Shown: positions 18,670-34,545, counted from the stretch's first letter. The stretch is 64,000 nucleotides of DNA from an uncultured Candidatus Saccharibacteria bacterium (GCA_964459225.1 CAYWKB010000001.1:32356-96355); one strand, 5' to 3'. Notes: generated from the sequence alone by a model not told the origin. Numbers and translations: made by a program.

Positions 18670-20289
18670 AATTGAAATAATCCACGAGCAGCTTCCGCTA
18701 CCCGTGCCTTGTTACGACTTACTCCCTGTCATTGAGCTTACCTTAGGCCACGACAAGCGTAGACTTCGGGTATTCCCAACTCCCTTGAGTTGACGGGCGG
18801 TGAGTACAAGACTTGAGAACGTATTCACCGCAGTATAGCTGACCTGCGATTACTAGCAATTCCAACTTCATGAGGTCGAGTTGCAGACCTCAATCCGAAC
18901 TGGGGATAGCTTTATAAGGATTTGCTCCATCTTTCGACTTTGCGTCCTGTTGTACTATCCATTGTATCACGTGTGTAGCCCAGGGTATAAGGGACATGCT
19001 GACCTGGCGTCATCCTCACCTTCCTCCCACGACGCAGCAAACAATTTTACAGAGGTTAGGAAAAATTGGTTCACATCACTTGCGTGCGTAGTAACTTTTT
19101 ATATCTCTTACGAGCTATAAAAAGTTCTCCGCACCGGATGTTCACTCAATTTTTCATCATCTCAACAAAATTCCGCACTGTGTCGTGGGCAGTCTCGCCT
19201 GACAAATATAACAGACAACGAGGGTTGCGTTCGTTACCCCACTGAAGGGAACAACTCAAGCCACGAACTGACGACGGCCATGCATCACCTGACTAACTGT
19301 CTTGCGACGCCAAAAGTTTCTTCTTGGCTTCAGCTAGATTAAACCCTGGTAAGGTTCTTCGTTTATCATCGAATTAAACCACATGATCCACTGCTTGTGC
19401 AAGTCCCCGTCTATTCCTTTGAGTTTTAACCTTGCGGTCGTACTACCCAGGCGCTTCTCTTAACGCGTTAGCTACGCCACTCAGAGGGTCGATACTCCGA
19501 ATAGCTAGAGAAGATCGTTTAGGGCGTGGACTACTGGGGTATCTAATCCCATTCGCGACCCACGCTTTCTTGTTTCAGTGTCAGGAGTGCTCTAGTCTGC
19601 TGCCTTCGCTTTTGGTGTTCCCCATAATATCAACGCATTTTACCGCTACACTATGAGTTCCGCAGACCTCTCGCATCCTCTAGTCATACCGTTTCCCTTG
19701 CATGCCCCCGGTTAAGCCGAAGAATTTAACAAGAGACTAATATAACCACCTACACAACCTTTACGCCCAATGATTCCGGATAACGCTTGAGGCACTCGTA
19801 TTACCGCTGCTGCTGGCACGAGTTTAGCAACCTCTTATTCGCCAAGTACTATCAATAAACTTTCTCCCTGGCAAAAGAACTTTACATGCCTAAGCACTTC
19901 ATCGTTCACGCGGCGTCGCTCCGTCAGACTTTCGTCCATTGCGGAAGATTCTCGACTGCGGCCACCCGTAGGTGTATGGACCGTGTCTCAGTTCCATCGG
20001 TGGGGGTCACCCTCTCAGGTCCCCTAGGCGTCATAGCCTTGGTGAGCTTTTACCTCACCAACTAGCTGATACCGAGCAGGCTCATCTTGAAGCGATAAAT
20101 CTTTAGTCTTTCGACACCATCAAGTATTAACTCATCTTTCGATGAGGTATTCCTGACTTCAAGGTTGATACCTACTTATTACTACCTCGTCTGCCACTGA
20201 CTATATATTGCTATACAGCCCGTTTGACTTGCATGCCTTATCCACGCCGCCAGCGTTCATCCTGAGCTAGGATCAAACTCTTAACTAAA
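18670..20289 (-). rRNA. rrs: 16S rRNA (about 1620 nt) with ~140-nt AT-rich expansion in helix 40 (plus coords ~19030-19175) and non-canonical 3' tail lacking CCUCC
   Basis: rc matches AGAGTTTGATCCTAGCTCAG (20262-20281), GTATTACCGCTGCTGCTGGCAC, GGACTACTGGGGTATCTAATCC, ACGGGCGGTGAGTACAAG, CCTTGTTACGACTT; flanking leader/trailer complementarity (18481-18507 vs 20290-20330). Confidence 0.9.
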
Positions 20290-20535
20290 ATGAACGGAAC
20301 AAAATAGAAAACAGTAATACTTAAATTATAGCTTTTATCTTGATCTTGTTTTAGATGATATAGAGTTCAAACTTCGCTCCCGTTAATGTGAATAAATTAA
20401 CTTGGAATCATTTTAAAATAAACATTAAACTTGCACGCATTCAATATCATTTGAATTCGAATACGTTCTTTAATGCACAACTTACTAAATTGTCGAAAAA
20501 CTCATTAAATTCGCCTTACTTAAGGCGTAGGTAGT

Positions 20536-20563
20536 ATTCTACTCGAAGTAATTTTAAAGTCAA
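20536..20563 (-). promoter_or_regulatory. candidate 16S promoter TTGACT-16nt-TAGAAT on minus strand, ~250 nt upstream of mature 5' end
   Basis: rc of 20558-20563 = TTGACT, rc of 20536-20541 = TAGAAT. Confidence 0.4.
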
Positions 20564-20585
20564 GCGAAAATGTATATTTATACCA

Positions 20586-31276: not shown

Positions 31277-31942
31277 ACGGTCTGAACCCAGCTCGCGTAA
31301 CTTTTTAATTGGCGAACAGCCAAACCCTTGGAAGCTTCTCCACCTCCAGGATAAGTTGAGCCGACATCGAGGTGCCGAACTGCGCCGTCGCTATGAACGC
31401 TTAGGCGCAACCAGCCTGTTATCCCTAGAGTAGCTTTTGGTCCGATAATCTTCCCCCGCGTCTAATGCGTAAGGTCGGTTCACTATGTTCTGCTTTCGCA
31501 TCTGTTCGACAAGTACGTCTTACAGTCAAGCCAGCTTATGCCATTACACTATCGGCACGGTTTCCATTCGCGCCTAGCTGACCTTAATAAACTCCTCCGT
31601 TACTTTTTAGGAGGATAGCGCCCCACTAAAACTGCCCGCCAGATTCTGTCTCTTGCCGTTTTTGCCGTCAAGGTTAGAATATATATTTTTTAAGAATGGT
31701 ATTTCACTGTCGGATCCATCTTCCCCGAAAGAAAAACTTCAAATCCTCCCATCTACGCTACGCATAAAAAACATATAGTCAAAATCAAGTTGCAGTAAAG
31801 CTTCTAGGGTCTTTTCGTCTAACTGCAGGTAATCGGCATCTTCACCGATATTGTATTTTCACCGAGCAAGTCTCCGAGACAGTTCTCCAGACATTACACT
31901 ATTCGTGCGCGTCAGAACTTACCTGACAAGGAATTTCGCTCT

Positions 31943-32160
31943 ACTATTCCTTTAAGCACAGTAGGACTCTATCTTCATCCTCACCTTTCGGAGTTGGGAT
32001 GCGTGGGGTTGGTCTCTATTTACCCACATGGACTCCACATTTGATTACTCAAATGCAGGTAGCTTGTTTATGTAATATTTTAACTTAATTTATCTAAAAA
32101 CGATTCACTTTTGCTATATAACAGTCCCAGTCCTCCTGTAGCTAAATCTTAGCTACAGGA
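31943..32160 (-). ncRNA. ~218-nt insertion in 23S near E. coli position ~1931 (between GGUCCUAAGG and UAGCGAAAUUCC): small intron or expansion segment
   Basis: E. coli-contiguous CGCTACCTTAGGACCG is split; insert starts with perfect hairpin TCCTGTAGCTA-agattt-AGCTACAGGA. Confidence 0.4.
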
Positions 32161-34545
32161 CCTTAGGACCGTTATAGTTACGGCCGACATTCACCAGGGC
32201 TTACAACAGTCAGCTTGATATAATCGCACCGCCGTTGTTTGACCTTCTGGCATTGGTCAAGTGTCACCCCCTATACATCCTCTTACGAGTTCGCAGGGAG
32301 CTGTGTTTTTGATAAACAGTTGCCAGAGATACTTTAGCTGCGGCCCTTCTTGCGAAGGGCAAGCCTTATTCCGAAGTTACGGCTGATTTTTTGCCGAGTT
32401 CCTTGGAGACCTCTCACTCGTTCGCCTTGGTCTACTCGACCTGAACACCTGTGTCGGTTTGCGGTACGGTTCCTGCATAGATAAGTTTAGAAGATTTTCT
32501 TGGAAGCGCGCTTTATAACATCTAAAAGGGCGAACCCCTCTATTTTCACTCTACTCGGAATTGTCATCAAAGACATTACCCGGATTTTCCTGGGTAAATT
32601 CCCTATAGCATGAACTCAAATCCAATAATGAGCGTCATATACTGCACTCCGTCCCTTCATCACTCTATACAAAAGTCATGGAATATTAACCATGTGTCCA
32701 TCGGGTGCGGTTTTCACCATCCCCTTAGGCCCGACTAACCCTTGGCTGATTTACATAGCCAAGGAAACCTTGTTCTTTCGGCGTGCCGGATTCTCACCGG
32801 CATTGTGGTTACTTGTGCCAACATTCTTACTTCCAAACGCTCCAGCATGGCTCACGCCTTTGCCTTCAACGCAGATTGGAATACTCTCCTACCACTGTAT
32901 ATTATCGAAATAAAATACAATCCTCAGTTTCGGTATCATGTTTAACCCCGATTATCTGCGGCGCAGAATCTCTCGATGAGTGAGCTGTTACGCTTTCTTT
33001 AAATGATGGCTGCTTCTAAGCCAACATCCTCATTGTTTGAGAAATTCAACCACCTTAAGCGTACTTAACATGAATTTAGGGACCTTAAATGGAGATCTAG
33101 GCTGTTTCCTTTTTGACGTATGGAGCTTAGCCCCCACCGTCTAACTGCTGAATAATTTAACCTCTGTATTCGGAGTTTGATAGGTCTCGTGATCTTTCGA
33201 CCTGTCGAGACCTTCCAGTGCTCTACCCCAGAGGGGTACATTCAACGCTAGCCCAAAAGCTATTTCGGAGAGAACCAGCTATTACCAGATTCGATTAGCT
33301 TATCACTCCTTACCTCAAGTCATCGCAGAGAATTGCACAACTCTAGCGTTCGGACCTCCCTTTCCACTTCTGAAAAGTTCATCCTGCTCAAGGCAAGCTC
33401 ATCTGGCTTCGGGTCTGATGCATACTACGAACGCGCTATTCACACTCGGTTTCCCTGTGGCTCCAGTCTCTCGACCTTAGCCTGCAGCATGCTTCAACTC
33501 GTTGGCTCATTCTTCAATAGGCACGCAGTCGAGGTATTGCTACCTCTTCTACTCCTTGTAAATATATGGTTTCAGGTCTATTTCATCGCCCTTACCGGGC
33601 TGCTTTTCACCTTTCCCTCACGGTACTAGTTCACTATCGGTCTTCTAGAATATTTAGCCTTACCGGTTAGTTCCGGCAGATTCCCCCGAGCTATTCGTGT
33701 CTCGAGGTACTCAAGAATAGGAACAAAAAAGATCTTTTGATTTCGACTACAGGGCTATCACCTTCTGGGGCTAAGCTTTCCAGCTTATTCTTCTATCAAA
33801 AAATTTTGTAACTTTTCTGTTATAAATAACACGTTCCTACCTTACTACCCCCAACCTTTATCGCACGATAGGACATGAGAGACATTGCTGTCCCCCAAAA
33901 TTCCTATAGCACGATAAAGGTTGAGTTTGGGCTCTTCCGCTTTCGCTCGCCGCTACTTACGAAATTCTTATTTAGTCTCTATTCCTCCAGGTACTGAAAT
34001 GTTTTACTTCCCTGGGTGCGCATTCAAATATCAAGTACTTGAATTCTGACTCGAGGTCAGAGGGTTTCCCCATTCGGAGTCTTCCGGATCAAAGGTTGCT
34101 AGGCACCTCCCCGGAAAATATCGTCGCCATGCCACGTCCTTCATCGCTTCTTAGAAGCCTAGGCATCCACCATATACTCTTAAATTTCCCATTAGGAAAT
34201 CTAAAAACCACAATTATTTGTCTACAACTTACAACATACTATTTAATGTATATATTCGAAAAAACCCTAACATATATACATCTTATAGTATTACCTTTAT
34301 TTATCACTCAGTAACTTCCTGATTGTTGAAATTACTGAGTTATTTAATTGTCAATGTTTCTGTCATTATGTTATTGAATTTTTCATTTCAATTTTACAAA
34401 AAAATCGCTTTATTAAGCGACCTTTCCTAACACCGTTTTAAAGCGTTATTATGGCCGTTTAAATAGTGAAGTTTTTAACATATTTCTGTGTAAGGGATAG
34501 TGTATACGAAGGTGAAATTAAAGTCAATAGCGATACATAAAATAG

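Follow-up and report, generated by a model that had tools for sequence, protein, structure and literature searches.

We describe here the ribosomal RNA (rRNA) genes of a 64,000-nt stretch of DNA, hereafter the window (GCA_964459225.1 CAYWKB010000001.1:32356-96355), which bears the label of an uncultured Candidatus Saccharibacteria bacterium. Our results indicate, with high confidence, that it holds the single-copy rRNA set of a Paceibacteria bacterium, divided between two co-oriented transcription units, one for 23S and 5S and a separate one for 16S. In the scheme that we favour, a sigma-70-type promoter at ~34527-34499 would drive a 23S-5S precursor, in which a 42-bp leader-trailer helix would bracket 23S as a substrate for RNase III and two group I-like introns, at positions 1931 and 2593 of the Escherichia coli numbering, would be removed by splicing. 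A promoter of the same type at 20563-20536, in a unit 9.9 kb downstream, would drive a 16S precursor with its own 35-bp leader-trailer helix, ending at a predicted strong intrinsic terminator (18475-18443). Between the two units lie ten genes with putative roles in the cell envelope, division and secretion, two of them in the opposite direction. From the sequence we infer the transcription start sites, the cleavage by RNase III, the splicing and a lack of read-through from 5S into the genes downstream.

Layout of the rRNA genes

The whole window was searched with Rfam at gathering thresholds. All three rRNA genes were recovered on the minus strand, with full coverage of their models:

30428..34196, minus strand: 23S rRNA gene (RF02541, 2230.8 bits, model positions 1-2925)
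30212..30320, minus strand: 5S rRNA gene, 109 nt (RF00001, 75.5 bits)
18670..20288, minus strand: 16S rRNA gene, 1,619 nt (RF00177, 1349.9 bits, model positions 1-1533)

The 23S gene is 3,769 nt long with its insertions, against the 2,925 positions of the model. A spacer of 107 nt separates it from 5S, the gap from 5S to 16S is 9,923 nt, and the distance from the start of 23S to the start of 16S is 13.9 kb. The same search found no further rRNA genes in the 64 kb, and no 23S downstream of 16S in the 18.7 kb of the window that remain there. An earlier reading of this DNA made from its letters alone (the sequence-only reading) had given a span of 18670-34192 and the order 23S, 5S, protein genes and 16S on the minus strand; the Rfam placement reproduces that order, and its ends agree within 4 nt.

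This order, 23S-5S and then 16S, falls under the definition of unlinked rRNA genes of Brewer et al. It also corresponds to type D, 'unlinked by distance', of Lui et al. 2021, as the rRNAs share one strand and plus-strand genes lie between them. The window is outside the class that requires the canonical 16S-23S-5S order, tRNAs and open reading frames (ORFs) on the same strand and short gaps, because the order is 23S-5S/16S, two genes are on the opposite strand, and promoter and terminator elements occupy the intergenic gaps.

Integrity of the assembly

An exact-protein look-up of the FtsW product led to Logan contigs from two sequencing runs. One of these contigs, L084 (SRR14271365, 10,042 nt), is 100% identical to positions 30296..20255 of the window. 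Starting 85 nt into 5S and stopping 34 nt into 16S, it crosses both junctions, at 30.1-30.4 and 20.3-20.6 kb, where a mis-join had been flagged as possible; that possibility is thereby ruled out. One could argue that two contigs ending in rRNA genes were wrongly joined and that the true operon is normal, given that the short-read assemblies of relatives often break at rRNA genes and many of their loci begin or end inside 5S, 23S or 16S. However, besides the independent contig, a comparison with relatives, which the sequence-only reading had proposed, shows the same order in dozens of species that were assembled independently, some of them on contigs of 100-430 kb, and circularised Paceibacteria genomes have the same order and distance (PMC8172020, S1 Table). 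We regard an assembly artefact as extremely improbable.

Conservation of the locus in relatives

Relatives were defined as the 80 closest FtsW loci, found by scanning GTDB representatives (one genome per species) with the FtsW protein, and synteny was mapped in these loci by BLAST with the window rRNAs and by tblastn with the window proteins. All 80 come from metagenome-assembled genomes (MAGs) of Paceibacteria/Parcubacteria, with labels such as Taylor-, Nomura-, Yonath- and Zambryskibacteria or Paceibacterota. Some of these MAGs are named 'Saccharibacteria', evidently by mislabelling. Judged by its relatives, the organism of the window is a member of the Paceibacteria (Parcubacteria; Candidate Phyla Radiation (CPR)/Patescibacteria).

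A common block emerges from this mapping, consisting of rplJ, rplL, o208, msc, 23S, 5S, (o304a), o255, ftsW, the GT4 glycosyltransferase gene on the opposite strand, the sugar transferase gene, secD, secF and 16S. 23S/5S lie upstream of ftsW in 64 of the 65 loci with enough upstream sequence, and, of the 35 that extend far enough downstream, 25 have 16S after secF. Without exception, the rRNAs share the strand of ftsW; wherever a GT4 gene was found in a relative, it has the opposite orientation. In the 22 loci with both genes, 5S and 16S are 6.7-13.5 kb apart (median 9.5 kb). The block is thus syntenic across species-level relatives, which points to an rRNA split that is ancient and inherited.

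Promoters and terminators

The candidate signals that flank the two units are the following:

34546..34579, minus strand: terminator of the upstream msc-like gene, 15-bp stem and T-run, which would insulate the 23S promoter
34499..34527, minus strand: candidate 23S-5S promoter, TTGACT-17-TACACT, ~300 nt upstream of 23S
30165..30186, minus strand: weak hairpin and T-run after 5S, 8-bp stem with 2 G-C pairs
20536..20563, minus strand: candidate 16S promoter, TTGACT-16-TAGAAT, ~250 nt upstream of 16S
18443..18475, minus strand: intrinsic terminator of the 16S unit, 14-bp stem with 5 G-C pairs, followed by TTGGTATTT

Promoter-like matches are no more frequent in this AT-rich region than in shuffled sequence (71 against 73.3); a scan of the single sequence was therefore abandoned as a measure of significance and conservation across species was used in its place. 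A box of the form TTGAC-N15-19-TAnnnT is present 190-330 nt upstream of 16S in 20 of 26 sequences, compared with 2.4% of random 330-nt windows, and its typical form is TTGACTTTA...GAGTAGAAT with a variable spacer. For 23S, 16 of 18 sequences have such a box within the 500 nt upstream, at a similar distance, as opposed to a rate of 4.6% in random 500-nt windows, typically as TTGACTTTA...TATACT, that is, of the TTGAC[TA]...TATACT type. The 16S promoter TTGACT-16-TAGAAT that the sequence-only reading had put forward is thus present at 20563..20536 with its boxes kept across species, and this footprint, together with the covarying helix described below, supports its proposal that 16S is transcribed independently.

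The same reading had given each rRNA unit its own terminators. This holds for 16S, which has a strong one; 5S is followed by a weak and non-conserved hairpin. A terminator comparable to that of 16S follows the gene in 3 of 9 sequences (2 of the 8 relatives). After 5S, terminator-like sites were seen in 20 of 57 loci (35%), about 3.7-fold more than in random windows (9.5%). In the window, the post-5S hairpin overlaps an extended -10 box, TGTTATAAT, that would serve the next gene as part of a candidate promoter at 30179..30151. Candidate promoters also precede several of the other genes between the units, with some of the -10 boxes abutting the start codon.

Leader-trailer processing helices

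The arms of the helices were located by an inverted-repeat search, the duplexes were scored against shuffled controls and covariation was assessed with RNAalifold. For both large rRNAs, complementary arms were found at the two ends of the gene:

34187..34228, minus strand: 23S helix, 5' arm, in the leader and the first 23S bases; pairs with 30398-30439
30398..30439, minus strand: 23S helix, 3' arm, in the last 23S bases and the trailer
20290..20324, minus strand: 16S helix, 5' arm, abutting the 16S 5' end; pairs with 18474-18508
18474..18508, minus strand: 16S helix, 3' arm, ~160 nt past the 16S 3' end

These are the leader/trailer stem of 16S (20324-20290 with 18508-18474) and the mutually complementary leader and trailer of 23S (34228-34187 with 30439-30398) that had been noticed previously. 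The 23S helix spans 42 nt with 88% complementarity (duplex dG -57.8 kcal/mol, z -11.9), and the 16S helix 35 nt with 83% (dG -49.9 kcal/mol, z -11.7). Relative to shuffled controls, the 23S duplex is conserved in all 16 testable sequences (z -6.7 to -20.9) and the 16S duplex in all 9 (z -4.4 to -11.7), with compensatory changes at 6 of 22 pairs in the former and at 10 of 29 in the latter.

The centre of the 16S helix, ~15 bp (TATTTTGTTCCGTTC / GAACGGAACAAAATA; 20320..20295 / 18508..18485), is nearly invariant, and it is the outer pairs that covary. This centre is more conserved than pairing needs, and it could be a recognition site for a protein or an RNase. No rnc gene, which encodes RNase III, was detected among the scanned ORFs of the window; at least 90% of CPR genomes reportedly keep the enzyme (PMC12641178).

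Genes between and around the rRNA units

The interval between 5S and 16S contains ten ORFs of at least 70 aa (20586..30128), and the independent gene calls of Logan also give ten:

29214-30128, minus strand: ORF
28292-29116, plus strand: ORF
27412-28179, minus strand: ORF
26232-27395, minus strand: ftsW/rodA (Pfam)
25076-26245, plus strand: GT4 glycosyltransferase (Pfam)
23668-25047, minus strand: Bac_transf sugar transferase (Pfam)
22234-23622, minus strand: secD (Pfam)
21324-22232, minus strand: secF (Pfam)
20801-21319, minus strand: ORF
20586-20801, minus strand: DUF2007-like ORF

The sequence-only reading had counted nine protein genes here, including secDF, ftsW and a sugar transferase, and had listed them on the minus strand. 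Pfam bears out the identities; the count is ten, and two of the genes, at 25076-26245 and 28292-29116, are on the plus strand, a point that the reading had not mentioned. Searches of Pfam and NCBIfam gave no usable match for the ORFs o304a, o274, o255, o172, o208, o360 and o74.

Upstream of 23S lie a mechanosensitive-channel-like (msc) gene, a 208-aa ORF, rplL and rplJ. The rplJ-rplL pair (36039-36954) is not preceded by rplK-rplA (encoding uL11 and uL1); the region upstream of rplJ (37142-43262) encodes instead a 922-aa protein, a beta-lactamase-family protein and a peptidoglycan-binding protein. After rplL come two small genes and 23S in place of rpoBC. This context is consistent with membership in the uL1-lacking Parcubacteria subgroup of PMC9297842, which it does not prove.

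Beyond 16S, the features of the window that touch its organisation are these:

17234-18316, minus strand: 360-aa ORF, between the 16S terminator and tRNA-Ile
16705..16778, minus strand: tRNA-Ile(GAU), called by ARAGORN and Rfam, 1.9 kb downstream of 16S, past the orphan ORF

The 360-aa ORF has a GC content of ~39-41% in a genome of ~31%. It gave no hit in Pfam or NCBIfam, matches only itself among 5.8 billion proteins, and is absent from the corresponding loci of the relatives. We had considered it as a mobile-element gene that might explain the rRNA split, an idea that was dropped given that it is an orphan matching only itself; it is either a recent foreign acquisition or no real gene.

tRNA-Ile(GAU) is the usual tRNA of the 16S-23S spacer. 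It also lies downstream of 16S on the same strand, at 0.7-1.5 kb, in three relatives (L022, L045 and L051). The only other tRNA that ARAGORN and Rfam identified in the window, besides this one at 16778..16705, is a tRNA-Ser at 62577..62488 on the minus strand, whose gene encodes the CCA end. Its anticodon loop, UUACUAA, gives the anticodon ACU and not GCU. In bacteria, AGY codons are usually read by a GCU anticodon, and an A at position 34 is unusual outside tRNA-Arg.

Insertions within the rRNA genes

Insertions were numbered against the rrlH and rrsH genes of E. coli K-12 (L003). Two other references were discarded: the 23S gene of E. coli ST2747 (L001, NZ_CP007394.1), which is 3,055 nt long with ~151 extra nt between 2446 and 2806, and NZ_AP027616.1 (L002), the 23S of which is ~74% identical to that of E. 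coli. The latter, a 2.9-kb RefSeq entry described as an E. coli plasmid, consists of a 23S gene only and is probably a contaminant. Against rrlH, the window 23S gives four collinear BLAST blocks, with breaks exactly after E. coli positions 1931 and 2593. Global placement of the 2593 insertion with MAFFT was wrong, producing a 492-nt 3' overhang or several fragments, and the local BLAST blocks resolved it. The insertions and expansions of the two large rRNA genes are as follows:

33811..33920, minus strand: 23S domain I expansion hairpin, ~110 nt, near E. coli 277
31941..32159, minus strand: group I-like intron, 219 nt, no ORF, after E. coli 23S 1931
30721..31276, minus strand: insertion, 556 nt, after E. 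coli 23S 2593, with a group I core at 31035..30728
19028..19143, minus strand: length-variable 16S insertion, ~116 nt, in the E. coli ~1125-1175 region (MAFFT against rrsH)

Both 23S insertions resemble group I introns and are presumably spliced out. The one at 1931, between the BLAST blocks at E. coli 422-1931 and 1932-2593, has a folding z-score of -3.3 and matches Intron_gpI (RF00028) with 26.4 bits (E=0.0037 in a restricted search; gathering score 50). Three relatives (L012, L016 and L045) have a homologous insert. The one at 2593 matches the same model with 41.8 bits (E=2.7e-9 when searched alone; gathering score 50), and it is partly conserved in many relatives. In L058, insertions in the 23S gene reach 50.6 and 61.6 bits to the group I model. 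Neither insert of the window encodes a LAGLIDADG or GIY-YIG endonuclease, the ORFs of the 2593 insert being at most 68 aa long and the 1931 insert only 219 nt. The match to the group I core in the 2593 insert leaves out the initial ~240 nt (31276..31036). In CPR 23S genes, insertions are frequent at both 1931 and 2593 (PMC11270868).

The 16S insertion forms a long hairpin from an inverted repeat (19026-19068 / 19147-19189) and has no match to an intron model in Rfam. The BLAST alignments of the relatives' 16S genes break at the same place, with gaps of ~17-130 nt.

tRNA genes were observed inside the 23S genes of some relatives: Thr, Gln and Asn in tandem at 4009-4276 in L021, and one each at 2591-2663 in L028 and 5773-5846 in L058. 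They were called by both ARAGORN and Rfam, with 51-66 bits against a gathering score of 29. All are at a single site, equivalent to E. coli helix 45, the classical site of intervening sequences; the 23S of the window has no insertion there. In those relatives, processing of the embedded tRNAs would be expected to cut 23S into fragments. The comprehensive paper on CPR rRNA insertions (PMC11270868) makes no mention of tRNAs within 23S. In the spacer between 23S and 5S, too, ARAGORN predicts tRNA or tRNA-like genes for several relatives (L009 7180-7337, L010 679-755, L015 7819-7895, L034 418-1021, L055 8546-8620, L074 and L075), some with odd anticodons, such as Ile(AAU), or with an anticodon it left undetermined. 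It predicts none in the 107-nt spacer of the window.

The 16S tail, start codons and primers

The 3' tail of the window 16S (18690..18670, minus strand) reads GGAUUAUUUCAAUU, compared with GGAUCACCUCCUUA in E. coli, and the CCUCC core of the anti-Shine-Dalgarno sequence is absent. All eight relatives compared (L013, L015, L022, L025, L045, L051, L064 and L070) have the altered tail GGA[U/A]UAUUUCAA, with one substitution in L051. A Parcubacteria subgroup has been described as having lost the anti-Shine-Dalgarno sequence (PMC9297842).

Start codons were analysed over the 30 nt upstream of the ORF starts of the window and of L004-L083. GGAGG is not enriched upstream of the 721 ORFs (1.0% against 1.2%), nor is any alternative Shine-Dalgarno-like motif complementary to the altered tail (TGAAAT, 1.4% against 1.1%). 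At -12 from the ATG there is a sharp peak of -10-like boxes (TAnn[A/T]T, often TGnTATAAT), which start there in 79 of 720 genes as opposed to ~10-20 at most other positions, and TATAAT is 16-fold enriched at -25..-3 from the start codons. In the window, 22 of the 49 ORFs have a -10-like box starting at -16..-10. This peak would be the signature of leaderless mRNAs, in line with the loss of the anti-Shine-Dalgarno sequence. In the literature searched, we found no report of a leaderless -10 signature in Patescibacteria.

With regard to common 16S primers, 806R, 785R and 1391R match the window 16S perfectly; a single mismatch was counted for each of 27F, 341F, 515F (GCAGCAGCGG) and 926R, and four for 1492R.

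Alternative explanations

Several observations weigh against two separate, single-copy units. In 10 of the 35 relatives there is no 16S within 3.2-6.2 kb after secF; these species either lack the downstream half of the layout or have a wider gap. No terminator-like site follows 5S in 37 of the 57 loci, and the hairpin of the window is weak. Both intron matches score under the Rfam gathering threshold. Moreover, the window covers only 64 kb, and a second rRNA copy could formally exist elsewhere in the genome. The small part of the genome that is visible would be the opening for the idea that the copies described here are surplus or decaying, with a functional linked operon at another place. Yet both large rRNAs match their full Rfam models at very high scores, and across species both purifying and compensatory selection act on the promoters and helices that flank them, so we give this idea very little credence. 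One could also imagine a single giant operon, with the 23S promoter driving one transcript through 23S, 5S, the protein genes and 16S, so that the rRNAs stay stoichiometrically coupled. The three rRNAs and eight of the ten intervening ORFs do share one strand, and the post-5S terminators are weak in the window and wanting in most relatives. However, two genes between the units are on the opposite strand, which argues against co-transcription, and the GT4 gene keeps that orientation wherever it was found in relatives; 16S has a conserved promoter and processing helix of its own, and candidate promoters stand ahead of several intervening genes. Such an operon is highly improbable in our opinion.

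A less extreme version keeps the units separate and lets transcription from the 23S-5S promoter continue into o255-ftsW, tying the expression of envelope and division genes to ribosome synthesis. Since post-5S terminators are weak or absent, read-through from the rRNA promoter into the downstream genes is conceivable, and it would explain the stable conservation of the block: 23S-5S are kept beside ftsW in nearly all loci, and the conserved 255-aa gene starts ~30-200 nt from 5S in many relatives. On the other hand, terminator-like sites are enriched after 5S, the window has a hairpin with a T-run there as well as an extended -10 box for the next gene, and synteny is weak evidence of selection in small genomes that rarely rearrange. 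We therefore consider read-through unlikely, albeit clearly less so than a giant operon. We also think it unlikely that the block of rplJL, 23S-5S, ftsW, the glycosyltransferase genes, secDF and 16S is more than a frozen accident in a rarely rearranging genome and is kept by selection, through read-through from, or local coupling to, the two strongest promoters of the cell. If it were, cell-surface growth would be tied to ribosome synthesis in an organism without most conventional regulators, the block would be a clade-defining synapomorphy of a large part of the Paceibacteria, and it might derive from an ancestral operon that was duplicated in tandem, each copy then losing the opposite half.

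Two separate units, each with its own promoter and helix, therefore remain our preferred reading, and it is tempting to speculate about their origin. By our reasoning, inserting genes into the spacer of a 16S-tRNA-23S-5S operon would not be enough to give the order 23S-5S, intervening genes, 16S, tRNA-Ile. That order would require either a translocation, or two tandem operons flanking the intervening genes that then suffered reciprocal loss of halves. The retention of tRNA-Ile downstream of 16S fits both routes, and no remnants that would discriminate translocation from duplication and loss were seen.

Consequences of the arrangement

The split has practical consequences. This organism and its whole clade are out of reach of methods that rely on long 16S-internal transcribed spacer (ITS)-23S amplicons, mismatches affect several of the standard 16S primers, and short-read assemblies break at the rRNA genes. 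For the biology of the CPR, our work adds detail to a known trait and leaves the picture of rRNA organisation unchanged. The loss of the anti-Shine-Dalgarno sequence with its leaderless signature, and the tRNAs at helix 45, are likelier to repay follow-up than the split itself.

Comparison with known systems

The split layout is real and ordinary for its lineage, and it has already been documented for the group. Brewer et al. (bioRxiv 10.1101/705046; ISME J 2020) listed Patescibacteria among the clades with predominantly unlinked rRNA genes and described the trait as phylogenetically conserved. Lui et al. 2021 (PMC8172020) found 27 of 34 circularised CPR genomes to be unlinked and defined the same-strand 'unlinked by distance' type, with opposite-strand genes between the rRNAs; their S1 Table includes Paceibacteria, Kaiserbacteria among them, with the same arrangement, 16S being closer to 5S than to 23S, at 16S-23S distances of 6.5-16 kb. 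Thus, the order that the sequence-only reading had called unusual is so relative to bacteria in general, but it is the norm for the class Paceibacteria (PMC8172020, section 9 and S1 Table; bioRxiv 10.1101/705046). In the searchable literature, we found no description of the conserved block of intervening genes or of the separately conserved promoters and helices.

The group I-like introns have counterparts in the 23S introns of the Thermotoga, Simkania and Coxiella type, with which they share identical E. coli insertion positions and a partial Rfam match. In contrast to those, the inserts of the window carry no LAGLIDADG ORF, score below the gathering threshold and are predicted introns.

Separate 16S and 23S-5S units with their own promoters are also found in Buchnera, Wolbachia, Rickettsia, Mycoplasma and Helicobacter pylori, and in such reduced genomes and H. 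pylori maturation proceeds, as we propose here, via RNase III cleavage of flanking stems (PMC6582327). In those organisms, however, the units usually lie on opposite strands or at distances of tens to hundreds of kb, whereas in the window they are 10 kb apart, co-oriented and flank a fixed block of genes. The survey of Brewer et al. agrees with our results in having more than 1,500 bp between 16S and 23S and in the consequence for 16S-ITS-23S amplicon methods, but it worked at the level of phyla, with 3 genomes and 330 long reads, and holds nothing on gene order or flanking elements. A close match is type D of Lui et al., which has the same class, strand, order, kb scale, opposite-strand genes between the rRNAs and 23S-5S spacer of ~100 nt. 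That work gives distances and categories only, and leaves out the intervening genes, the separate promoters and helices and the synteny of the block across the clade. Our contribution beyond it is modest: the clade-wide conservation of the block, and the promoters and helices that are conserved separately for each unit.

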